DNA of 30,748 nucleotides from a virus (taxonomy: Duplodnaviria > Caudoviricetes), in the IMG/VR virus record IMGVR_UViG_3300027813_003349, positions 1-30,748 of that record. One strand, 5' to 3'. A program made the position numbers and the translations under genes. The notes under the pieces are model-generated. The model made no database searches. It saw nothing but the letters and a program-made list of their open reading frames with translations, and was not told where the DNA came from. Position 1 is the stretch's first letter, and every line of letters begins with the position of its first letter. Positions 3,420 to 22,584 of the stretch are shown here, piece by piece.

Positions 3420-3979
3420 ATTTTATTTATTATTCCATAATCTAAACACATCGGTGCCGTTAAATAGGTATCATTTCTTTGAATCTTTTCCCAAAAAGAT
3501 GCATTTTTATTTGATACTTTACCTAAAATATTATTAATGTTTTTCTGTAAATCTTTTAAGTGATCAACACCTTTCATCACATCAGTAGTTTTACCTACTT
3601 CAAATGCAGAACCTTCATGAACCATAACCGTTGAGTTTTCACTCATTGACCTTACTCCTGTACCACACGCTAATAATACAGAAGCTGCACTCATACAAGT
3701 TCCAATACAATGTGTATTTACTTTAACTGGTAATCCTCTTATATAATCTACCAACCCTAACATAGCATAAACATCACCACCATATGAAGTAATATTCATA
3801 TTGATATCTTTAGTTGGATTACTTCGTACTAAATAATCTAATTTAACTTGTACTGAATATACACTATCAATTTCAAACTCGTGGTTCATCCAAGTGGTAT
3901 TGGTATCCGAATTGACACCCCACTCAATTTCTTTCATATAAAATAGTTGTTCTTTTTTATAATCCATTACTTGCTCCAT
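3413..3979 (-). CDS. clpP: ClpP-family serine protease (start may be 3967)
   Basis: ITSYGGDV, CMSAAS (Ser), VMVHE (His) and RNDTY (Asp) match the ClpP triad context. Confidence 0.85.
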   Translation of the reverse strand: MEQVMDYKKEQLFYMKEIEWGVNSDTNTTWMNHEFEIDSVYSVQVKLDYLVRSNPTKDINMNITSYGGDVYAMLGLVDYIRGLPVKVNTHCIGTCMSAASVLLACGTGVRSMSENSTVMVHEGSAFEVGKTTDVMKGVDHLKDLQKNINNILGKVSNKNASFWEKIQRNDTYLTAPMCLDYGIINKIA

Positions 3980-4395
3980 ATTTTTTTTAATTGTTTATCA
4001 TCAACACCATACTTCATTATGATTGTTGTAACTTGTTCTTTGGTTAACATCTCTAAGTATTGCTCCACCTCTCTTGTACTACATTCAAAATAATCCACTA
4101 AGTGTTCCATTGCCCACTTCTCTACTTTAGATTTCTTTTTTGATTTCGTGTATTTCAAAAAGGTTCTGCCTCTTGGTAACACATCTATATAAAACTGATA
4201 AAGATTCTTTGGTTTTATTTCCCAATGCTTTTGAATCTCATTTACAACTTGTATCCATTCTGACTTCATACTAAGGAATCTATGAACCATGTAGTTGCTC
4301 CAAGATTTTTTATCACCATCGGTGATTGAATCCCAATATAATGTGTTTTGCACATTTGTAATTTGTTTTATGTGGTCGAATAATGATTTAGACAT
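3967..4395 (-). CDS. clamp loader small subunit, T4 gp62-like
   Basis: YMVHRFLS, VNE, YQFY...FLKYTK and YFECS..E...YL pattern; gp44-like and gp45-like genes upstream. Confidence 0.65.
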   Translation of the reverse strand: MSKSLFDHIKQITNVQNTLYWDSITDGDKKSWSNYMVHRFLSMKSEWIQVVNEIQKHWEIKPKNLYQFYIDVLPRGRTFLKYTKSKKKSKVEKWAMEHLVDYFECSTREVEQYLEMLTKEQVTTIIMKYGVDDKQLKKIWSK

Positions 4396-5179: not shown

Positions 5180-5733
5180 TTTAAAGATTCTCCAGTATAC
5201 CAAGTCAATAATTGTTTTCTAACACCAACTGTAATTGGCGTAAGTCTATGTAATAATGGTAATGGGAATTGTACCATTTGTCCTACTTTTAATTTTACAT
5301 CTACTATTTTAAAATTATCTTTTCCAGTATCCATATTAAGTTTCCAACTTGGAAATTGTAAAACTCCACCTTCATACTCATCATTTAAACTTATAGAAAC
5401 TGCCACTCTCCTTACACCAAAAGCATCATCAAAATGCATTCCAATCTCATCACCCACTTGATACTCTTTAAAAAGTAATGGCCATAATCCACCATCACAA
5501 GTTGCATAATTTCCTATGTCCTTATTTTCTATTAGTCTATCATACACCCAATCTTCAGCATTTATTACCCTATCTAAAATATTATCTTCTGGTTGTCTAA
5601 GTATTCCGTTTAGCCATGTTTTATTAAATGATGAATTAACATGATAAAATCTATTAACAAAACTTGTATCCATTTCAAGAATTTTATCACATTCCTTTTT
5701 GGTAAAGATTGTTTTTACTATATAATTATTCAT
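5173..5733 (-). CDS. 2OG-Fe(II) dioxygenase (prolyl-4-hydroxylase/PiuC-like)
   Basis: HxD (MHFD), SISLNDEYEGG, distal His (LHRLTP) and Arg (GVR...W). Confidence 0.87.
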   Translation of the reverse strand: MNNYIVKTIFTKKECDKILEMDTSFVNRFYHVNSSFNKTWLNGILRQPEDNILDRVINAEDWVYDRLIENKDIGNYATCDGGLWPLLFKEYQVGDEIGMHFDDAFGVRRVAVSISLNDEYEGGVLQFPSWKLNMDTGKDNFKIVDVKLKVGQMVQFPLPLLHRLTPITVGVRKQLLTWYTGESLNW

Positions 5734-6910
5734 CCAAATACCTTATTAAAATTAATCCAGGAATCGCAATTAATGTACAGAATATAAAATAATATTCCCA
5801 ACCTATTGACTCTACTAAAAATCCTGTTTGTGATGTAAATATAGTTCTTGGTATTGCTACAAAACTTGACAACAAAGCATATTGTGTTCCTGTAAACTTT
5901 ACATTAGTAAGTAGTGCAATGTATGTTATAAATACTGCAGTTCCTAACCCAGAACAAAAACTCTCAAATAATCCTACTGAACAAAGTAGAATTAAATTTG
6001 GTTCTACCCAACTCAATATAACATATCCAAAAGTAGATACCATTTGTAATATTCCAAAATAAAATAATCCCTTCATTATATTATTATACCTTACTAACAG
6101 AATTCCACCAATAAAACTTCCAAGAAGTGTCATCCAAGTACCTATAAACTTCATATATCCAATTTGAGATTTAGTATATTCTAAATCCAAATAATAAGGT
6201 ACACTCATAAAGAAAGCCAACATATCGCCAATTTTATACATAAAAATAAATAATAATATAACCAATGCCTTATTTTTACGAAAATAATCTAATAATGGTT
6301 CTATAATTGATTCTCGCGTTTTAACTACATAATCATTCTCATCACACATCAACGTAGTAAGAATACCAACACACATAAAACTTGATAAATATAAAAATAC
6401 AAAATTAAATGTCATGTAATCTGATAAAATAAATCCCAATGAACCAATAACTGACATTGCCACTCTATAACCAATTACATATAAAGAAGATGCTAATGGT
6501 AGATGTTTCTCGGATACATTTTCTCGTCTATACGAGTCCACTAATATATCTTGTGTTGCAGAAAAGAATGATAGCATTAAACATAATATTCCCAACGGAA
6601 TTAATTGAGTGGAAATGTCAATCGAATATATCCCAACCATAGTTAAGATTATCAAGATTTGACTTATCAATAACCAACCTCTTCTTCTACCTAAAAATGG
6701 TAATGAGAATCTATCCAAGAATGGTGCCCAAGTAAATTTCAAAGAATAGGGTAATCCAACTAACCCAAGTATACCAATCATGGACAAGTCAATTCCAAAA
6801 TCTTTCATCCAGGCCTGGAGAATAGAAAGTGTCATCAACAATGGAACTCCCGCTGAAAATCCCATTAGTAAACTTACTATACAATCCTTATTTATATAAT
6901 CTCTAATCAT
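5726..6910 (-). CDS. ampG: AmpG-family MFS permease
   Basis: GFSAGVP, LKFTWAPFLDR, GRRRGW, SATQDILVDSYR, YKIGD and TQYALLSS motifs; about 12 hydrophobic segments. Confidence 0.85.
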   Translation of the reverse strand: MIRDYINKDCIVSLLMGFSAGVPLLMTLSILQAWMKDFGIDLSMIGILGLVGLPYSLKFTWAPFLDRFSLPFLGRRRGWLLISQILIILTMVGIYSIDISTQLIPLGILCLMLSFFSATQDILVDSYRRENVSEKHLPLASSLYVIGYRVAMSVIGSLGFILSDYMTFNFVFLYLSSFMCVGILTTLMCDENDYVVKTRESIIEPLLDYFRKNKALVILLFIFMYKIGDMLAFFMSVPYYLDLEYTKSQIGYMKFIGTWMTLLGSFIGGILLVRYNNIMKGLFYFGILQMVSTFGYVILSWVEPNLILLCSVGLFESFCSGLGTAVFITYIALLTNVKFTGTQYALLSSFVAIPRTIFTSQTGFLVESIGWEYYFIFCTLIAIPGLILIRYLDE

Positions 6911-8654: not shown

Positions 8655-10220
8655 CTACCAATCCCAAACCGAAGAACTATAAACATTACCTAACTGGTCA
8701 AGAATATTTTTTGAATAGTTATACACACTACTACTATAGTCTGAATAATTAAACCTGACACCATTGGTTATATTATGTGAGAGTAAATTCATTTCCTGAG
8801 TAAAACAATCACTTCCAGATAACGAACTTGAAATATGTGAAGCTTGAGGCTCATTTAGTGTATACAAATGATTTTCACTCAATACTAATTTATCATCACA
8901 AAATAATGATCGTTGATACGGTAAGTCTGATTGTGGCTGTGGGTAGACAAGAACTTGATCAGTAGTTGTGGATACACTACTAATTGTAGCATCACTTAAA
9001 TTTGAATTTAGATAAACATCTCCATTTTGAACTGTACTAACTTTCTTAATCTCCCAACTACTACCACTTTTTATAGGCATTAATGTATTTCCATGTAAAA
9101 CCGTACCATCTACATCATAACAATTATCACAATATTTTGGTATTAGTGTATAATTGTTACTACCAGAGACAAAATTGAAACTCCCAGTATAAGATGTATA
9201 ATATCCTAATCTGGAGTCAACTGTGTTGTATGCATGTGAATTTAAATCTAAACTGTCGATTTTTACAGTTTTTACATCTACTAAATCTAAATTACTACTT
9301 GAAATGTGAATTTGAATTGGAGTATTAGTAGAATTGTCTGCTAATTTAATGTTAGTATTTTCACCACATAATCCAAACGAAACTATTTTACTTTTTAATT
9401 TTAAATCTTTATTACTATAATCACTAAAACTTTTTCGACTAAAACTACTACATACAAACGGGTTATCCGAATTGATGGATAATGGTAGTACAGTGCCATC
9501 TTCCATCAAAGCTACAATATAATGTATCTCATTAAAATATCCCCACTTATCATTATCTGGAGTATAATACTTTTCTATAAATGATGTTGCCATATGTTGT
9601 CTATTTCCACTCGGTAATAGTGAATTATCAATCGAAGAACTATAACTACTCGATTCATAAAATGCAATACCTAAATGTTGATCTCGTGTTGAGATTTTCC
9701 AAAGATAGTCTGGTATTCCACTTGAATTATGAGACTGTATTTGTTCCGAACCTGTCTCTGCCATTAAACTACCACTACCAATTTGATTTATGAATTCTCG
9801 TAAATTATCTTTCTTAATTGCCATATAATCTAATTTACTATTACCAGAAGTGCCGACTCTTAAATCTAAAATATCATCTGTTCCTACTTCAGTCATTCCA
9901 TATGGATAACTTTTTACATCTATATAAAGTGAAGAAGATATATTATGTATCGCCAAACTGGAAGACACTTTAGATTGTACTTCTTGAGAAATTGATTCAA
10001 TTGGATTTCCATGAAAATCGTAACCATGCCATGAACCGTAATTATGGTGTAATTTTACTTCTGATATTTCATTGGAATTACAGTAAGTTGCTAATCCATC
10101 GAAGCTTAAAAAATTTTCTATTTGATGCATTCCACCCAACAAAACATTAGTATTTATTTCAAGTAATTTTAAGGATCCACTTGATGGTATCCAATCAAAA
10201 CTACAAATTATGCCTTTCAA
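8655..10220 (-). CDS. circularly permuted ATP-grasp-like protein fused to a degenerate Hint-like domain
   Basis: N-terminal D...LKLLEINTN, later YLWK and FIEKY; GLCGENTNIKLADNS, VQNGD and LFCDDKLVLSEN resemble Hint blocks; TTG start with AGGAG RBS. Confidence 0.55.
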   Translation of the reverse strand: MKGIICSFDWIPSSGSLKLLEINTNVLLGGMHQIENFLSFDGLATYCNSNEISEVKLHHNYGSWHGYDFHGNPIESISQEVQSKVSSSLAIHNISSSLYIDVKSYPYGMTEVGTDDILDLRVGTSGNSKLDYMAIKKDNLREFINQIGSGSLMAETGSEQIQSHNSSGIPDYLWKISTRDQHLGIAFYESSSYSSSIDNSLLPSGNRQHMATSFIEKYYTPDNDKWGYFNEIHYIVALMEDGTVLPLSINSDNPFVCSSFSRKSFSDYSNKDLKLKSKIVSFGLCGENTNIKLADNSTNTPIQIHISSSNLDLVDVKTVKIDSLDLNSHAYNTVDSRLGYYTSYTGSFNFVSGSNNYTLIPKYCDNCYDVDGTVLHGNTLMPIKSGSSWEIKKVSTVQNGDVYLNSNLSDATISSVSTTTDQVLVYPQPQSDLPYQRSLFCDDKLVLSENHLYTLNEPQASHISSSLSGSDCFTQEMNLLSHNITNGVRFNYSDYSSSVYNYSKNILDQLGNVYSSSVWDW

Positions 10221-10266: not shown

Positions 10267-10800
10267 TCAAATATATTTAATTAAGTGTTCATTATAAAAA
10301 TAATTTTCTAACATGGGTAAATATATTAATCCCAACTCTTTCATTTGACTCTTATAATAATTTAATAATTTTAATTTTTCTTTAACCTCTTTCAAACTTA
10401 AATCATCACCTTTATTATCAAAACAATATAAATTATTCAAATCGGGAATTTCATTCTTCACACACTCAAAAACTTGCCTATGGTGTGGATGATGATATCC
10501 AGTATCACCAACTTCGTTGTGAGTCAACACCATATCCCAATTCACTTCCCTCAATACCTTATTCAATTTCTTTCTAATGCCCACTATATCTAAATCTACT
10601 TTCCATTCATCATGAAAATCCCATATCTCATAATCTACTTTTACTCTTTTCATTACCCTTTGAAATTCAGATTTTCTTATCTCATCTTTACCATTTGTTA
10701 CACAAATCACCTTATCAATATAATTATGTAACAATAACAAACTACCAGCAAAAATTACTTCATCATCAGGATGTGCTACAATTAATAAATTATTGTTCAT
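10267..10800 (-). CDS. PIG-L/LmbE-family N-deacetylase
   Basis: IVAHPDDE, RxxE, VLTH, HPHH and YKSQ motifs; likely start at 10800 overlapping the upstream stop. Confidence 0.88.
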   Translation of the reverse strand: MNNNLLIVAHPDDEVIFAGSLLLLHNYIDKVICVTNGKDEIRKSEFQRVMKRVKVDYEIWDFHDEWKVDLDIVGIRKKLNKVLREVNWDMVLTHNEVGDTGYHHPHHRQVFECVKNEIPDLNNLYCFDNKGDDLSLKEVKEKLKLLNYYKSQMKELGLIYLPMLENYFYNEHLIKYI

Positions 10801-11383
10801 ATGGAAACTCCACATTTGGAACTGATTTATCTAAAAAAGAACACAATTCTTTCCAACCATCACCATTATCACATATATTCATATCTAAATAATCTATATT
10901 TTTTTTATTTAAAAATCTTACATTACTGTCATGTTTAAATTGAGCCCGACCTTTAACCCACTCTTTTTGATATTCTGGGTAATTTCTAAATACTTCTTCA
11001 TCACCAACACCTAACCAATTCCAATTATCAAAATATCCTTGTCGTATTCTTTTAATTTTATCCCGCAAAACACTATCTACATAACCATCTAAATTTTTTG
11101 TTAAACTGATATATTTTGAGTCTGGATATTCATCTACAATATGACTAAAAACCGTAGGTTCATAAATAGGATAGTCTATATAACAATCATACATATCCAT
11201 ACCACTTAATATATCTCTTTGCATATGTAAATTATTTCCAATTTTATCTAAAAACCCTATAAAATCATCGGATTCACCCGTGTGTAATACATTATATCCT
11301 AAAATTTCTAAAGCCTTAGCTAAACTCTTAGTACCTGTTTTATTATATCCCAATACAAATATTTTACTCAAGAAATTCTCCAC
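10790..11383 (-). CDS. P-loop sulfotransferase-family protein (Sulfotransfer_4-like)
   Basis: KIFVLGYNKTGTKSLAKALEILGY, YPDSKYI and DGWKELCSFL...FP motifs. Confidence 0.78.
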   Translation of the reverse strand: MENFLSKIFVLGYNKTGTKSLAKALEILGYNVLHTGESDDFIGFLDKIGNNLHMQRDILSGMDMYDCYIDYPIYEPTVFSHIVDEYPDSKYISLTKNLDGYVDSVLRDKIKRIRQGYFDNWNWLGVGDEEVFRNYPEYQKEWVKGRAQFKHDSNVRFLNKKNIDYLDMNICDNGDGWKELCSFLDKSVPNVEFPYEQ

Positions 11384-12767
11384 TCGTCATCCAATCAAAC
11401 CCTATATATCCCATTTTTTTATGTATTGTTATTGCCCTACGATTCCATCCATCTACATATGCTAAATCATATTCAATATTTTTATTAATTAGGTAGTTTG
11501 TAATATATGTAAAGAAACTTTCAATTAACTTACCATGTTTTCTACTTGTTCTGTATTCAGGAAGGCATCCCCAATATCCACCATACGAATAATTTTTTGG
11601 TAACCTCATATTAATATCCCACTTATGATCATAAAATGTAAACTCATCAAAAAACCACCAATTCCATTGTATCAATTTTCCATTATGAAACATAGCACAT
11701 AAATTATGACCATTCTTTATTCTTTCTTTTGCTAAATCATAATCCCATAACCAAGTTTTAGTTGATATTTCATTTACATATTCCGAATTAATTAGTTTCC
11801 ATTCCTTTACCCCGTTAGTAATTTCATCTCTTCTATTTTCTAACGCTTCAAGTGTATCAATATCTTCATAAACCACTCCTCCAATATCTGGTGTGTGTAT
11901 TTTATATTCGTGTATAGATTTTCTACTAAACCAATAAGTTTCCTTATCATCATAAATCCAACCAGGTCCGTCAATTACATTCATTCTACTATGTGGTAAA
12001 ATCCCAATAGGTTCTACAAAGGATGTATCAAAATTCATATTTAATTTTTGTTTAATACATAAATCAACAAATCTCTCTAATCCCCAACCGAAACAGGCCG
12101 TATATTGTGCACCATCTATATTAAACTTTTCTACAAATTTCTTTCCATGTAAATTAAAAGAACCAAGTGCAATAGTTCTACTTTCATTTGGAACTTCGGC
12201 CCGTATTTCTATCTTAGAGCCTGAATTTAATTGAACCTTTCCTTTTAATTCTGATTTATCACCGAAGAATGGATCTGATGCTATCTCAAAATAATAATCC
12301 AACCCAAGTTGACTTAACATTTGTTCAGTATAAATCATTGCCCTATTGAGACTCTCTTCACAATATTCTTTCGTTCCTACGAAAACAATCTCTGATATCG
12401 TAAAGTTAAACATTCGTTCTAATGTTTCACCCTCTTCTTCGATTCGTGTACACTTACCAGTCATCATATAAGATTTATTTTCAGGATGGTGAGTATCACT
12501 TAACATACTATAACAATGATAACATACCGTAGGTGAACACATTCCCTTTTCATGACCATCTAAATCGTGGATTAAACTTGCTTGATTAGAAAAGGAATCT
12601 AAATAACCTGTCTTTTTTGCGTTATCAATTGATAAATGTGAAGGTGTCCAAATTCTTTCCGAATTAAACAACTCTCCCATTTTATAAGTTAATTTTTCTA
12701 ATTCATCTAAATAACGAACTATCTTTCCCTGTAAGACAAATAATCCATCACCTATTTTATTAATCAT
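11364..12767 (-). CDS. class II aaRS-like (atypical SerRS-type amino acid:carrier protein ligase) domain fused to a C-terminal GNAT domain
   Basis: PTVCYHCY, CTRIE, ERMFNFTISE, ASDPFF, SFNLH and TACFGWGLER; no tRNA-binding arm; C-terminal LPEYR..G and NRRAITIHKKMGY; likely start at 12767 (MINKIG) overlapping the upstream stop. Confidence 0.8.
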   Translation of the reverse strand: MINKIGDGLFVLQGKIVRYLDELEKLTYKMGELFNSERIWTPSHLSIDNAKKTGYLDSFSNQASLIHDLDGHEKGMCSPTVCYHCYSMLSDTHHPENKSYMMTGKCTRIEEEGETLERMFNFTISEIVFVGTKEYCEESLNRAMIYTEQMLSQLGLDYYFEIASDPFFGDKSELKGKVQLNSGSKIEIRAEVPNESRTIALGSFNLHGKKFVEKFNIDGAQYTACFGWGLERFVDLCIKQKLNMNFDTSFVEPIGILPHSRMNVIDGPGWIYDDKETYWFSRKSIHEYKIHTPDIGGVVYEDIDTLEALENRRDEITNGVKEWKLINSEYVNEISTKTWLWDYDLAKERIKNGHNLCAMFHNGKLIQWNWWFFDEFTFYDHKWDINMRLPKNYSYGGYWGCLPEYRTSRKHGKLIESFFTYITNYLINKNIEYDLAYVDGWNRRAITIHKKMGYIGFDWMTSGEFLE

Positions 12768-13026
12768 CAAGTGATATTCCTGTACCAGCCAACATTGTCT
12801 TTGGAACTTTTCCACAATTTCCACAACTATAAACATCTATCGGAACTAATGCTTCTTTTCCTGTTGGTGATACAATTGCTGATAATCTTTTTATTATCGT
12901 GGATTGTATAAACAACACATTATTACATTCAGGATCATCACATCTTACGGTATCTGCTTTCGATAAATCTACCTGTTGTTGTGGTTGCTGTGGTTGCTGG
13001 AACTGCCTTTGTGGTTTTGTACTCAT
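12760..13026 (-). CDS. small zinc-ribbon protein with Q/P-rich N-terminus
   Basis: CDDPEC and CGNC Cys pairs; AGGAG RBS. Confidence 0.75.
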   Translation of the reverse strand: MSTKPQRQFQQPQQPQQQVDLSKADTVRCDDPECNNVLFIQSTIIKRLSAIVSPTGKEALVPIDVYSCGNCGKVPKTMLAGTGISLDD

Positions 13027-13036
13027 TGTAACTCCT

Positions 13037-14194
13037 TTATACGTTTGTATGTATTTCTAAATTTTTATATTTTTCTCGTAAAGATTTTACATTTTTAAGT
13101 TCATTTATAAAATCTTTATACTTTGGATGATTTTTATTATTTATATTCTTTATTTTCCAAACATCATCGGTAAATGTTCCCCAATTATTTATATGAATAA
13201 AGTTCACTTCAGTTCTCATATTATTTAATTTTTGAAAATAATTTGACATTGTTATGAAACCTACCATTTCTTTATAATTATTATCTTGTACTACAAAAGT
13301 CATTCGTACAAAATCTAAATTTGGTATTTCTGTAAATATAAAATGTAAATTCTTTTGTAATGTTTTCCAATTACCACCAACTCTAATTTTATTATAAGTT
13401 TCTTCAGTACACGCATCAATACTAATTTCAGCAGTTATTCGTGGAATATCATGTAAATTACTTAAACTATTCCACATCTTCTTAGTCCATCCATTAGCAT
13501 TTGTATGTAAATGTAAATTTTGTGTATTGGGATATTTTTCCATATTAATAGACTTTAAAAGATTTCTCCAAAATTCTCCACCAAATCCATCACCACTCGC
13601 AGTAACATACAATTCGTGTGCATCATCCATAGAATCACACAAGATAACCTTTTGTATCTTCTCTGAATTCTCTCTTTCTTTACCAGTTGTCTGTATATAA
13701 TCTAACCTACAACTTGGACATTTCAAATTACAACTCCTATCATGTGAAAATATAACACATTCTGGACCCCATGGCAATTTAACTATCTTTTCAGATATAA
13801 TCTTCTTCCACTTCTCTTCGCCATTTGGATTTATTTCTTTTGCATTCCATAACTTATGAAAAGTACTCTCATCATAAATCGGAAAGTAACCATTATCATA
13901 AATGGTTTCATCTACATCCTCATTATACCACCTATTTAAAAATCCACATTCGGTTGAATCACAATATTTAAAATCACCATCGTGCATAGATTGTCTAAGT
14001 TTTTGAGCAACTTCCCCGTTCCAAATATCATCCCACTTATCTTCTAATGCATTACCAGAAGGGCCACAGGTTATCCAAGCATTAACCCATCGTTTTTCCT
14101 CTTCACTCCATCCACCTGAAACACATTGCCATACTTTTCCATCATGAAAGAATTCTGCATTTCTGAATGGAGCTACACAAAATCCCTTTCTCAC
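13037..14194 (-). CDS. radical SAM protein with N-terminal SPASM/twitch-like segment
   Basis: CNLKCPSC; N-terminal FCVAPF..GKVWQC..GN..IWNG..LR..YC..C; TNANG and ISIDA. Confidence 0.88.
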   Translation of the reverse strand: MRKGFCVAPFRNAEFFHDGKVWQCVSGGWSEEEKRWVNAWITCGPSGNALEDKWDDIWNGEVAQKLRQSMHDGDFKYCDSTECGFLNRWYNEDVDETIYDNGYFPIYDESTFHKLWNAKEINPNGEEKWKKIISEKIVKLPWGPECVIFSHDRSCNLKCPSCRLDYIQTTGKERENSEKIQKVILCDSMDDAHELYVTASGDGFGGEFWRNLLKSINMEKYPNTQNLHLHTNANGWTKKMWNSLSNLHDIPRITAEISIDACTEETYNKIRVGGNWKTLQKNLHFIFTEIPNLDFVRMTFVVQDNNYKEMVGFITMSNYFQKLNNMRTEVNFIHINNWGTFTDDVWKIKNINNKNHPKYKDFINELKNVKSLREKYKNLEIHTNV

Positions 14195-15114
14195 TTTACA
14201 ATTCCAATTATCTCCACAAACATAGCCATAACATTAATTTCTTTATCCACAACTACTGCATCACTTTGTTGATATTGACTTAATGCTAAAATACACTCTG
14301 CAACATGGCCTTTACCCCAATCATCTACGGTATCAAATAGTAACCTAAATAAATCACTAAAGTCTGTTACTTTTGAATCTGCTAATACTTGTCTAATGTT
14401 TTTAAACGAATTCTTTTTATCTTGTGTTTTTAAAATATCTAATACTTTTAACTTATAGTCATTTTGTATTGCCATCCCCTCATCAATAACAAGTTTACCA
14501 TTTATTACTTGTCTTTGAGTAGAATTTATTACTCTTCTAAGGTCTGGAAATCCACCATTAACTATAGTTACAATATCATCTACTGTTGCACCCACCTTTT
14601 CATTCTGTAAAATATTTGAAACATGAAGTGCAACTTCTTTTCTATCTGGTGGAATAATCTGAAAAGATTGACAACGACTTTGTATCGGATCTATAATTCT
14701 CTCTACAAAATTACACGTTAAGATGAACCTACAATGTCTACTGAATGTTTCCATTAAATTACGAAGTGCCGCTTGAGCATTAGGTGTGATATAATCACAC
14801 TCATCTAAAATGATAATCTTCATCTCAGCAAATCCAAGTGTTGAGGCAAAGTTCTTTACTTTATCTCTAACTACCTCTACACTATTCTCATCTGATGCAT
14901 TAATATACAAATAATCACAATCTATATTATTAACGAGTAATTTTGCGAGAGTGGTCTTGCCCGTGCCGGCTCTTCCGTACAGTAAAAGATGTGGCAAGTC
15001 TCCACTCTCCAGATAAACCTTAACCTTACTCTTTAGATGTTCATTTCCAATGTAAGTGTCAAGGTTTGAAGGCCGATACTTTTCAGTCCATAAACTATTT
15101 TTAATTTCTTCCAT
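14191..15114 (-). CDS. clamp loader large subunit (gp44/RFC-small-like AAA+ ATPase)
   Basis: WTEKYRP, GRAGTGKTT, INASD, ILDECD and SRC motifs; likely start at 15114 (TAATG overlap). Confidence 0.93.
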   Translation of the reverse strand: MEEIKNSLWTEKYRPSNLDTYIGNEHLKSKVKVYLESGDLPHLLLYGRAGTGKTTLAKLLVNNIDCDYLYINASDENSVEVVRDKVKNFASTLGFAEMKIIILDECDYITPNAQAALRNLMETFSRHCRFILTCNFVERIIDPIQSRCQSFQIIPPDRKEVALHVSNILQNEKVGATVDDIVTIVNGGFPDLRRVINSTQRQVINGKLVIDEGMAIQNDYKLKVLDILKTQDKKNSFKNIRQVLADSKVTDFSDLFRLLFDTVDDWGKGHVAECILALSQYQQSDAVVVDKEINVMAMFVEIIGIVK

Positions 15115-16343
15115 TATAACTTTTTCCATATCCAAATTGGTTCACAAAATCTTTTATCTTTAGTATCTTCTGCCCGTTGGATTGTTTCTTTATGAAATCT
15201 CTCATCACTTGCCTTTGCCATCCCTGCTCCACCACTATTTGGTCGTTTAGCCATTTCCATACCAATACAACCTTGATATTCTGAATCACTAAATGTTGAT
15301 AAGAAGTCATTCATAGGATTACAAATCTCTACCATATTTCTTTGTGATCCAGTTCTAGCAAATACATCAGCAATATTCACTAATAAATATCCACCACTCT
15401 TAATAGAAACCCATAAATTTTCAATAGTTTTCTGTAAAAAGTTTTTATTCCAATCATCTATTTCTTTATATCGCACCCAACTTTGAGTGTCTTCATAACT
15501 ATATCGCTCTACTGAAAAATATGGTGGCGATGTAAATACGGTATCAAACATATTTTCATACTCTTTAAAGTCCACATCCTCTGCGGGGGATTCAATAAAT
15601 TCACAATCCTTATCGACTTCAAAAAACATATTTCTATGTTTTTCATAGAACTCTTTTTGTTCTCTGTAGATAGGATGGTTTTCTTTTCGTGGGTCTATTC
15701 CAAGATAATACTTACCACTTTCACTACCATAGAATCCTGCTAATCTATCTCCCCAACCTGCACTAAAATCAAGTATATTTTGACTACCTAACTTATCGTA
15801 TAGTACTTTTGCCACATTTGGTTTAAATTGAGAACAAATATACTTTCTCAAACTTATCATAACTCTAAGAGCACCCTTATTTATTTTGGGAAGTTTTAAA
15901 GTATATGCGGCACCCATCAATGTAGTCATAAACTTATAACTATCCCAAGTTCTAATTGGTCCTGGTGCGATTGTTCCATCCACACTCCATCGATTTTCTT
16001 GTTGAAAGTAATTACTTGAAGCGTTACCTGTATTGATTCTTCTGAAGTATTGTTGTTTACCTTCGAATGTTAAATCATAACGATACTTTGTACCCTCTCG
16101 TGCAAACCACTCACCATCTACCAATAAATCATTATGTCTCATACCTTTAAGTTTCTGTAACTCTTTGTATGCTCCATTTTCTGAAATGTTCATGTATGGT
16201 GGTGGATATGTCATTGCAACTTTTGCAAGACTTTCTCGTACATCTTGTTTTTCAAATGTTTCTTTAATATAACTCCATTCTCCCTCTTCAATAGAGAGAT
16301 ATGGTTTCATATTTAAAAATTTATCGAAATATTCTAAGTACAT
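15114..16343 (-). CDS. DNA amino-methyltransferase (N4-C/N6-A), copy 2
   Basis: LDFSAGWGDRL (motif I) before FTSPPYF (motif IV). Confidence 0.83.
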   Translation of the reverse strand: MYLEYFDKFLNMKPYLSIEEGEWSYIKETFEKQDVRESLAKVAMTYPPPYMNISENGAYKELQKLKGMRHNDLLVDGEWFAREGTKYRYDLTFEGKQQYFRRINTGNASSNYFQQENRWSVDGTIAPGPIRTWDSYKFMTTLMGAAYTLKLPKINKGALRVMISLRKYICSQFKPNVAKVLYDKLGSQNILDFSAGWGDRLAGFYGSESGKYYLGIDPRKENHPIYREQKEFYEKHRNMFFEVDKDCEFIESPAEDVDFKEYENMFDTVFTSPPYFSVERYSYEDTQSWVRYKEIDDWNKNFLQKTIENLWVSIKSGGYLLVNIADVFARTGSQRNMVEICNPMNDFLSTFSDSEYQGCIGMEMAKRPNSGGAGMAKASDERFHKETIQRAEDTKDKRFCEPIWIWKKL

Positions 16344-19761: not shown

Positions 19762-22584
19762 TTAGAAATTAACACTTAACCCTAAGTTAAAGTATCTTGG
19801 TGTACCAAGAAATACTTCAGCATTATGTGCTGCGTGAGTTTTATCTCCATAGCTATTGTACTGACTATGATCTACTGCATCTTGAACATATGTTTCGTCT
19901 AATGCGTTAAACACATGAGCAAATAAAGATATGTCATATCCACTAACTGGTAGTAAATATGAAGCATGTAAGTCCACCTTTGAATAAGATGGTGCTTCCC
20001 ATACTTGTTCTCTATCTGCATCTTCATCTGAACCATCATATTCACGAGAATCAGGACTCCAATCACTATAGTTCTTATCATAAGAATTCCATAGTGCTGA
20101 AAGTACTAATCCCTTTACAGGAAAAATGGTTGCACCAAGTGCATATGATGTTTGTGGCATATCACCAACATACAATCCGTTAAGAGCATATTGATAATCT
20201 GTAGTGGTTAAACCAGTTACATTACCTTGTTCATCATATTCATTTGATTGATACTTTCCATTAGCATCACCATCAAACTTCCAAGTACCAAGACTTACAG
20301 CTGCTGTTATACTAACCATTTTATGTAGTTGTGTAGAAGCTTCAATCTCAAGTCCTTGATGTTTTTGATTAATACCTGTTAAGAAAATGACATCAGTATC
20401 ACCTGAATCACCTTGACCTGTAGTTACTGATTTAGTAAGGTTTCTATCTTTCCAATCTGTATTGTATACATTTGCCTTGACAGCGAATCTATCAGATTTG
20501 AAATTAACACCAGCTTCTGAACTGATGAAAGTTTCATTATTTGGATCAGAAGCAACCGTACCATCATAGTAAATTACATTGTCCATGATTGGTGGTTTCT
20601 GAACATATCCAATATTACCAAAAAGGCTAACATTATCGTCTATGTCGTACATTGCTCCACCTTTGAACTGAGCAGTATAAATAGCATCAGCTTTTATTAC
20701 TTCATCAGCAACTGAAAAGTGGTCTTGGTAAGAATACTTAATACTTGATAATCCACCCATACCATATAGATTTAAATTATCTTTTGTATAATTACCTTGT
20801 ACAAATCCACCCAACCAATCAACGGTAGTTTCATTGTGATAGGCGATTATATCACCTAACTCAACTCTTTTACCATCTGGTGAGTTTTTATCAGCATAAT
20901 CCATGTAATAATCACCACCGAGTAAATCACGAACTTCTCGTGCGTGTTCTATACCTGCGGTTCTCCAATCAATACCTACTTGTACTTTAAACTCATCACT
21001 AATATCGTAATTAAGTTTAGAAATTACACCGTAAGTATCTTGACGATTGATACTATTACGAAGAATACCAACTGATTGGTTATTACCTTCGCCATGTGTT
21101 CGTGTAAGAGCTGACTTATCTACATATACTGTATCAGAATTACCTGAGTTATATGCTATAAGACTATTCCAATCACGAGTCCAGGGACCACGACCATAAT
21201 AAAATTTATAGTCATCATCGCCAAGATTACCATCAGCATCAAATGTAGGAATCTTACCATAAGTTCCTGTTCCACCACCTGAACCACCAGACCAATAAAA
21301 GACTGAACTTAAACTTGTCTTATCATCTATTGTCCAAAAATGATTTAGATTTACTAATGGTTTGTGAAAGTAGTTTTCTCTTTCGTTTAGATAATCACTT
21401 GCGTGTCTATCTTGTAGTCCACTATCAAAAAGTCCACCTACTCCATACATATACCAGTATTGTTTACCTTTATATGATGGGTCAACTGGTGACCAGTTTT
21501 GATTAAATAACCTACCGACATCCTTGAACTTACCATCATCTTGTGGAACTCCTTCTACCTCTGTTGGGAGTGCTTCAGTATCATATCCATCTATACTCGC
21601 AGCAAAATCAGCGTCATAAGCACCGATATTCTGTTTGTATAGATTCTGTCCATGTCTCTGTGGAGCACCGATTGCATATAATTCCAATCGATGGTCAGCA
21701 TTTACTTGATAACTTGAACCAAAATAATAAGCCCAAGCATCTGTCCATGTTTTGTCAATGATACCATTACCTGTTTTACGAACTACAGTTCCACTTAAAG
21801 CGAATTTATCACTAATAAGTCCTGAATTGTAATTCAAAGTAGTTTTCAATAAACCACCTGCACCACTTTCCTGTTTAAACTTACCACCTTTTGAAGCGGC
21901 AGCAGGATTTGTGATTATGTTCATCGTTCCCCCTATCGATGGGGCAGCTAAATTAACGGCACTTAATCCACGCTGCATCTGAATAGATTGAGCTGCATCT
22001 GCAACTCCATCCCAATTAGACCAATAGACCCAACCGTTTTCCATATCGTTTTGTGGAACTCCGTTTATCATTACTGCGATGTTTCGTTGGTTAAAACCAC
22101 GAATGTTGATGCGAGCATCTCCCGCACCACCACCTTGTTGTGTTGCATATACACTTGGGGTCTGGTTAAGAGCCATTGGAAGGTCTTGTGAACCAAGACG
22201 AAATTCCAATTCTTCTTTACTAACCGTAGTGTAAGCAACAGGTGTTTTTTCATCTGCTCTTGAAGCCAAAACCTCAAGTGCTGACATAGTTAAAACATCT
22301 TCTTCTAAATTGAAGTTGAGTGTTCCAACTATATCACCCACTATAACATCAGATGTTACAGGTGAGTATCCAATGAATGAAGCAGTTAATGTAAATGTCC
22401 CTTCAGCTCCGACATCAATAGTGTATTTACCAGATTCATCTGTTACACCACCTCTATCAGTTCCTTCGACAGCTACATTTGCCCCAATCAATGGTTCATT
22501 ACCACTATTGACTACACCGACAATAGATTGTGCAAACAATCCTGTCATCATCATTAGTGATATTATTAGATTATTTTTTCTCAT
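19762..22584 (-). CDS. TonB-dependent outer membrane receptor
   Basis: Signal peptide (..GLFA-QS), carboxypeptidase-regulatory-like domain (EPLIGANV...TDESGKY), plug (RINIRGF, VMINGVP, IQMQRG, GGTMNIIT), beta-barrel and terminal Phe (YFNLGLSVNF). Confidence 0.93.
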   Translation of the reverse strand: MRKNNLIISLMMMTGLFAQSIVGVVNSGNEPLIGANVAVEGTDRGGVTDESGKYTIDVGAEGTFTLTASFIGYSPVTSDVIVGDIVGTLNFNLEEDVLTMSALEVLASRADEKTPVAYTTVSKEELEFRLGSQDLPMALNQTPSVYATQQGGGAGDARINIRGFNQRNIAVMINGVPQNDMENGWVYWSNWDGVADAAQSIQMQRGLSAVNLAAPSIGGTMNIITNPAAASKGGKFKQESGAGGLLKTTLNYNSGLISDKFALSGTVVRKTGNGIIDKTWTDAWAYYFGSSYQVNADHRLELYAIGAPQRHGQNLYKQNIGAYDADFAASIDGYDTEALPTEVEGVPQDDGKFKDVGRLFNQNWSPVDPSYKGKQYWYMYGVGGLFDSGLQDRHASDYLNERENYFHKPLVNLNHFWTIDDKTSLSSVFYWSGGSGGGTGTYGKIPTFDADGNLGDDDYKFYYGRGPWTRDWNSLIAYNSGNSDTVYVDKSALTRTHGEGNNQSVGILRNSINRQDTYGVISKLNYDISDEFKVQVGIDWRTAGIEHAREVRDLLGGDYYMDYADKNSPDGKRVELGDIIAYHNETTVDWLGGFVQGNYTKDNLNLYGMGGLSSIKYSYQDHFSVADEVIKADAIYTAQFKGGAMYDIDDNVSLFGNIGYVQKPPIMDNVIYYDGTVASDPNNETFISSEAGVNFKSDRFAVKANVYNTDWKDRNLTKSVTTGQGDSGDTDVIFLTGINQKHQGLEIEASTQLHKMVSITAAVSLGTWKFDGDANGKYQSNEYDEQGNVTGLTTTDYQYALNGLYVGDMPQTSYALGATIFPVKGLVLSALWNSYDKNYSDWSPDSREYDGSDEDADREQVWEAPSYSKVDLHASYLLPVSGYDISLFAHVFNALDETYVQDAVDHSQYNSYGDKTHAAHNAEVFLGTPRYFNLGLSVNF

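Follow-up and report, generated by a model that had tools for sequence, protein, structure and literature searches.

A marine phage protein that joins a class II synthetase-like ligase to a GNAT domain, a candidate tRNA-independent aminoacyl transferase

Amino acid:[carrier protein] ligases such as Bll0957 and Atu2573 (PDB 3mey, 3pzc and 4h2s; NCBIfam NF005479) are built on a truncated core of the methanogen-type seryl-tRNA synthetase (SerRS), which lacks the tRNA-binding domain and has a Cys/Glu/Cys zinc site, the motif 2 and motif 3 arginines and a segment that follows a DPFFG motif. According to the available part of one report, these enzymes also load glycine and alanine onto free coenzyme A (CoA) (PMC5370406), and the available part of a 2022 review states that their biological role is unknown (PMC9437257). 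The window, the whole stretch of 30,748 nucleotides of the IMG/VR virus record IMGVR_UViG_3300027813_003349 (Duplodnaviria; Caudoviricetes), has a gene, P0001, whose product shares all these structural features. Unlike Bll0957 and Atu2573, the phage protein is fused to a GNAT domain, has no adjoining carrier gene, scores 97 bits against a curated cut-off of 357, and has an amino-acid pocket that varies by clade. With a probability of about 0.55, it is a two-step, tRNA-independent aminoacyl transferase that acts through a thioester; its enzymatic activity is predicted from homology and context.

A functional parallel is the SbzL-SbzG-SbzI system of altemicidin biosynthesis, in which a GNAT whose P-loop is substituted receives a pantetheine thioester from an adenylating enzyme; in the available part of the source, the donor of this loop-less GNAT is carrier-bound, and an alanyl-carrier is accepted by SbzI at low efficiency (PMC11685415). 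Both systems pair an adenylating enzyme with a GNAT of substituted P-loop, whereas the Sbz components are separate proteins with ANL-type adenylation and a dedicated carrier. By analogy, the fusion would work like an amino acid:[carrier protein] ligase joined to an SbzI-type GNAT. Transfer of amino acids to amines or hydroxyls by GNAT folds is also described for Fem, MprF, VlmA and Sba18-Sbb17 and for fusions of aminoacyl-tRNA synthetases (aaRS) to MprF, where a dedicated aaRS paralogue is fused or paired (available part of PMC2922099). These use aminoacyl-tRNA and tandem GNATs, whereas the phage protein has an aaRS paralogue apparently unable to bind tRNA, and one GNAT with a short N-terminal strand element. 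Mom of phage Mu is likewise a phage GNAT that transfers glycine, and differs in its Gly-tRNA donor, its DNA acceptor and its family (PMC13219725, available part).

The ligase and GNAT parts are already known; the novelty is the fusion, its phage setting and the exchange of donor modules, for which no description was found in listings of literature with few subscription journals. The fusion places a GNAT, the missing next step, on the same chain as the ligase, which makes the question of donor and acceptor testable with one soluble protein.

The fused gene and its ligase half

The fusion is genuine and not an artefact, because full-length homologues exist and contigs from other studies run across the gene or its junction. 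Eleven of 15 matches are full-length homologues with 42-79% identity to P0001, and all 19 matches in a profile search of longer proteins have 450-474 residues. The contigs span the fused gene (11303-12831, 0 differences) or its junction (11717-12820); the locus L013, which is identical to the window, is excluded from this support.

The sequence-only reading had proposed a class II aaRS-like ligase with Cys/Glu/Cys zinc ligands and no tRNA-binding arm, joined to a GNAT domain, and each of these assignments is borne out. The class II catalytic core is nearest to Bll0957 and begins at residue 1, with no N-terminal tRNA-binding domain. The ligands C82, E126 and C225 and the arginines R108 (motif 2) and R232 (motif 3) belong to the catalytic set of the ligase, which is kept, by sequence, in 91/91 full-length fused proteins, many of them near-copies; zinc binding is predicted from the kept ligands. 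The basic segment after DPFFG, at the place of the carrier-recognition helix of Bll0957, is conserved (K175 and Q179 are invariant) and is modelled with low confidence (pLDDT <50 at 166-182).

In the amino-acid pocket Gly227 takes the place of Ala281 of Bll0957, and Ile124 occupies the position of the serine-specifying arginine of the Methanopyrus kandleri SerRS. By the A281G rule of Bll0957 specificity, the window form should accept alanine and glycine, and perhaps serine, because it has Gly227 and no serine-specifying arginine. The pocket is Tyr83/Gly227 in the window and His/Ala in P0010-P0012, whereas P0100 and P0101 differ in their strand residues. It is strongly predicted that the ligase half adenylates a small amino acid.

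The fused ligase should not be placed in the amino acid:[carrier protein] ligase family proper, because no cognate carrier gene was found in the sequences scanned and the curated score is not reached: ligase halves reach 94-97 bits on NF005479. The P0101 clade scores slightly higher on the SerRS model, which, with the homology to methanogen-type SerRS, would fit a degenerate or tRNA-charging SerRS. This is extremely improbable given the missing tRNA-binding domain, the Ile124 replacement and the absence of any tRNA gene found in the window, and the invariant catalytic residues of the 91 proteins indicate that the ligase is not decayed.

The GNAT half and the proposed reaction

The C-terminal half has a GNAT fold, a single unit that aligns with the C-terminal unit of tandem GNATs and the strand preceding it. 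Its best fold match is the glucosamine N-acetyltransferase GlmA (PDB 5kf1; 12% identity), which differs in being a tandem GNAT with an acetyl-CoA donor, and whose D287N mutant turns up in the structure search. The DGWN motif (D439-G-W-N442) and the H381/W383 hairpin are invariant. By an end-anchored offset, with no residue alignment displayed, D439 would fall on the catalytic D287 of GlmA, and Asp439 is the probable base. The position of the general-acid tyrosine (GlmA Y297) is not kept and has His, Cys, Ser, Thr, Gly, Val or Asn instead. GNAT motifs A and B had both been named from the sequence. Motif B stands: its Asn (N442) and the acidic residue that closes the fifth strand (D439) do not vary among 18/18 proteins, whereas motif A is a degenerate basic loop, at R406 TSRKHGKL in P0001. 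The R/Q-x-x-G-x-G/A loop, which binds the CoA pyrophosphate, is found in 0/91 fused proteins and in 0/8 fusions of this GNAT to an AMP-binding ligase.

From homology, the zinc-dependent ligase half would bind a small amino acid and ATP and form an aminoacyl-AMP, a step for which the case is strong. The aminoacyl group would then pass to a pantetheine thiol, which may be that of free CoA or pantetheine or of a host carrier protein because no dedicated carrier gene is seen. The GNAT half would use this thioester as donor, with Asp439 as probable base, and form an amide on an amine acceptor; both thioester formation and GNAT transfer are proposed with moderate confidence. The acceptor is the weakest step: it may belong to the pathway of the surrounding gene island, where a neighbouring ATP-grasp-Hint protein would make or handle it, be it a peptide, a protein or an amino sugar. 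On this reading, a GNAT that has an acetylating role in related phages would have undergone an "acyl-donor swap" through the fusion.

The carrier protein of the sequence-only reading finds no support in the gene context. A motif scan detects no carrier gene in 40 sequences, apart from 2 spurious opposite-strand matches, and PF00550 detects none in 7 viral records, which are 13-42% complete, such that a distant gene is possible. A locus labelled bacteriophage (L130:7731-9226; GenBank MT835751) looks bacterial and has a canonical ligase followed by an 86-residue carrier-like open reading frame (ORF).

The lack of both a carrier gene and a CoA loop, together with the fusion of two unrelated adenylate-forming domains to this GNAT, would fit a direct hand-over of the aminoacyl-AMP without a thiol shuttle. 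We consider this unlikely, because the basic segment after DPFFG is conserved, in a region modelled with low confidence, and because the free swapping of halves speaks against a tuned channel; no GNAT is known to use an adenylate donor. A Mom-like enzyme that hypermodifies DNA and supplies its own activated glycine is very unlikely. Mom moves glycine from Gly-tRNA to DNA adenine (available part of PMC13219725) and the island sits among replication genes, but the C-terminal half has no Mom Pfam match at E up to 0.5, and is not basic (isoelectric point 5.6; median 5.9). A true Mom is present in a related phage outside the island, between polymerase and clamp (L084:426-1196; PF25680, E 8.7e-48), and profile comparison with it gives a probability of 0.1%.

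Module swapping and the occupants of the island slot

The 20 fused ligase halves form one clade (100/100) within a group that includes stand-alone ligases of Patescibacteria and Marinimicrobia metagenome-assembled genomes (MAGs), and the GNAT halves form one clade (100/99) that includes the GNAT fused to an AMP-binding ligase. The two trees conflict, and the switch between halves lies at about residues 243-295: between P0003 and P0006 the ligase halves are 92% and the GNAT halves 38% alike, whereas between P0007 and P0100 the figures are 33% and 67%, respectively. The closest relatives of the phage ligase half are stand-alone sister ligases of 258-310 residues (P0219-P0230; 37-43% identical), whose names, where present, come from MAGs of these same two groups. 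The AMP-binding ligase fusions with the same GNAT clade form the P0102 cluster (631-638 residues). A second GNAT-like gene and a truncated AMP-binding gene (L004:6645-7773, L008:12147-13274) are separate in some loci and fused in others.

All fusion loci with flanks long enough to tell have the gene inside an island between clamp-loader genes. Dereplication of 58 islands with both boundaries left 40, of which 16 have the fusion and 24 lack it. A stand-alone GNAT of 145-165 residues is present in 16/24 islands without the fusion and 0/16 with it; of the remaining eight fusion-lacking islands, six are empty slots. Homology of the stand-alone GNAT to the fused domain has a probability of 94.6%; the CoA loop is present in 20/26 distinct stand-alone proteins, and their gene lies directly before the ATP-grasp-Hint gene in 29/42 cases. 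In L117 the slot has an AMP-binding gene and a related GNAT. One GNAT lineage therefore appears in three donor arrangements: stand-alone, associated with an AMP-binding enzyme, and fused to the aaRS-like ligase. In run X8, one contig joins both flanks with 1717 other letters in place of 11370-12736, which indicates that the slot is exchanged in a close relative.

The ATP-grasp-Hint gene is present in 16/16 fusion islands and 18/24 others. Its ATP-grasp label rests on the D..E-x-N motif and on a weak Atlas lead, and its Hint label on Pfam matches of homologues. A Hint unit that ends in His-Asn and is followed by a short cargo, which nearly always begins with a Pro-containing peptide such as LPPRK, occurs in 35/35 distinct proteins of fusion-lacking loci; Pro/Lys cargo occurs in 0/23 proteins of fusion loci. 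One subtype of the latter stops at ILVHS, and that of the window has a conserved Asn and then a 38-residue Ser/aromatic tail, which is kept in 7 distinct homologues (window 8655-8770) and is possibly a different cargo. The fusion-lacking proteins (L113:1980-3776, L074:2590-5268, L053:5982-7529 and others) have one to four Hint units split by very short peptides (IPPK, LPPRK, IPPGK, KF, SSF, LPPKGGGGA), which self-cleavage would release. 2-Oxoglutarate oxygenases lie beside these genes in 18/24 fusion-lacking and 5/16 fusion islands, and a short ATP-grasp-like paralogue (185-235 residues; L012:9185-9745, L006:236-916) is found just before the fusion in one clade.

This change of cargo, as if an amino acid supplied by the ligase had replaced the peptide substrate of the GNAT, would suit the reverse order of steps, in which the GNAT N-acylates the ligase-activated or loaded amino acid from acyl-CoA and thereby provides the ATP-grasp protein with a capped N-acyl-aminoacyl unit. 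An alpha-amine would still be the acceptor, as perhaps with released Leu/Ile-Pro-Pro-Lys cargo in the fusion-lacking islands, and the retained motif B Asn is consistent with this order. The reverse order is nonetheless rather improbable: it is precisely the fused forms that lack the CoA P-loop, the same GNAT with this loop type is also joined to an AMP-binding ligase, an enzyme that makes acyl donors, and another GNAT-like protein in 6/16 fusion islands could do any acetylation. Of the two mechanisms offered from the sequence alone, transfer of the activated amino acid to an amine fits better than its N-acylation, because the fused GNAT has lost the P-loop and the same GNAT is joined to a second, unrelated activating enzyme. 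The additional GNAT-like proteins have weak Pfam matches and include a 163-residue form with a canonical RTKGWG loop.

Within the aminoacyl-transfer reading, a live alternative to a peptide or protein acceptor, possible though not favoured, is an amino sugar in a surface glycan of the phage or its host, with no relation to the ATP-grasp-Hint protein; this alternative shares the first three steps and differs only in the acceptor. It would agree with GlmA as top fold match and with a nearby sulfotransferase, PIG-L de-N-acetylase, which could expose a sugar amine, glycosyltransferases and UDP-glucose dehydrogenase, and operons of the bacterial ligases are predicted to aminoacylate a surface-sugar amine (available part of PMC2922099). 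On the other side, PIG-L occurs in only 4/16 fusion islands, and sugar enzymes are absent from the smallest islands (L001 and L003), which consist of the fusion, the ATP-grasp-Hint gene, a second GNAT-like gene and no more than one further small ORF.

Several observations weigh against aminoacyl transfer through a thioester to an acceptor of the island. With its degenerate P-loop the GNAT is better suited to a donor on a carrier than to free CoA, yet the sequences and records scanned gave no carrier gene; side chains of the basic R/K loop may still contact CoA, and the canonical loop is present in only 2/13 matched stand-alone bacterial relatives, so that others deviate too. The fold names neither donor nor acceptor: protein acetyltransferases are among the top three rows of the fold search, which lie within about 1 Z of one another. 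Fusion-bearing and fusion-lacking loci were drawn with different queries, and the extra GNAT-like genes complicate the slot pattern. The ATP-grasp-Hint gene occurs without the fusion in 31/38 whole slots, which makes adjacency alone unspecific, and two genes separate it from the fusion in the window. The context correlations are clustered: in quick trees of 28 and 34 rows, the ATP-grasp tree needs only 2 changes and the clamp-loader tree 4, of which starred branches force only 1.

Should CoA be the shuttle, the formation of aminoacyl-CoA, known as a side reaction in vitro, would gain a biological use, and the natural chimeras and pocket variants are ready specificity controls. By swapping donor modules, phages may diversify a chemical decoration, which could help them to evade host defence or to alter the virion surface. 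A wider and more speculative proposal is a modular peptide-tagging pathway of large marine phages, in which swapping the activating module (none, AMP-binding or aaRS-derived) would switch the acyl donor of the GNAT, together with a change of ATP-grasp-Hint cargo. The fusion would then transfer aminoacyl groups with neither carrier nor tRNA, aminoacyl-CoA would be a genuine metabolic intermediate, and the ligase family would have its first defined downstream step.

Phage setting

The window covers part of the genome of an uncultured, T4-like marine phage, with genes for polymerase B, clamp loader, recombinase, helicase and single-stranded DNA-binding protein (Table 1). Gene order is the same in the nearest cultured record, Microcystis phage Mel-JY01 (polymerase 44%), except that its Zn-ribbon gene directly adjoins that of the small clamp-loader subunit. 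Genomes of relatives are about 180-250 kb, as implied by CheckV estimates. The sole GTDB match is a phage-like contig in a Flavobacteriales MAG, which does not establish the host. The fusion is accessory, present in 1/38 whole slots among loci chosen by clamp loader.

Table 1. Coordinates of the fused gene, its parts and its neighbours in the window.
Feature	Position	Strand	Description
Fused gene P0001	11364..12767	(-)	467 aa; class II aaRS-like ligase and GNAT
Ligase domain, residues 1-240	12048..12767	(-)	Bll0957-like catalytic core without tRNA-binding domain
Zn ligand C82 (predicted)	12522-12524	(-)	Sequence comparison
Zn ligand E126 (predicted)	12390-12392	(-)	Sequence comparison
Zn ligand C225 (predicted)	12093-12095	(-)	Sequence comparison
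Linker zone, about residues 243-295	11883..12041	(-)	Ligase and GNAT halves exchanged between lineages here
GNAT domain, about residues 270-460	11388..11960	(-)	Degenerate basic motif A loop; DGWN; H381/W383 hairpin
Zn-ribbon gene	12760..13026	(-)	Conserved upstream island marker; overlaps fusion start by 8 nt
Sulfotransferase (PF17784)	10790..11383	(-)	Overlaps end of fusion; variable island gene
PIG-L family de-N-acetylase	10267..10815	(-)	4/16 fusion islands, 0/24 others
Permuted ATP-grasp-like and Hint-like protein	8655..10220	(-)	Island resident
Clamp-loader large subunit	14191..15135	(-)	Upstream island boundary
Clamp-loader small subunit (phrog_225)	3967..4395	(-)	Downstream island boundary

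An MFS transporter with a match to Acatn, an acetyl-CoA transporter, lies inside the island (window 5726-6910) and occurs in 4/16 fusion islands, and the island of one clade has a DUF5020 and Vut_1 gene pair, annotated as putative vitamin uptake transporter (L028:11774-13070). A 940-residue TonB-dependent-receptor-like gene (window 19762-22584) is conserved in 11 loci.
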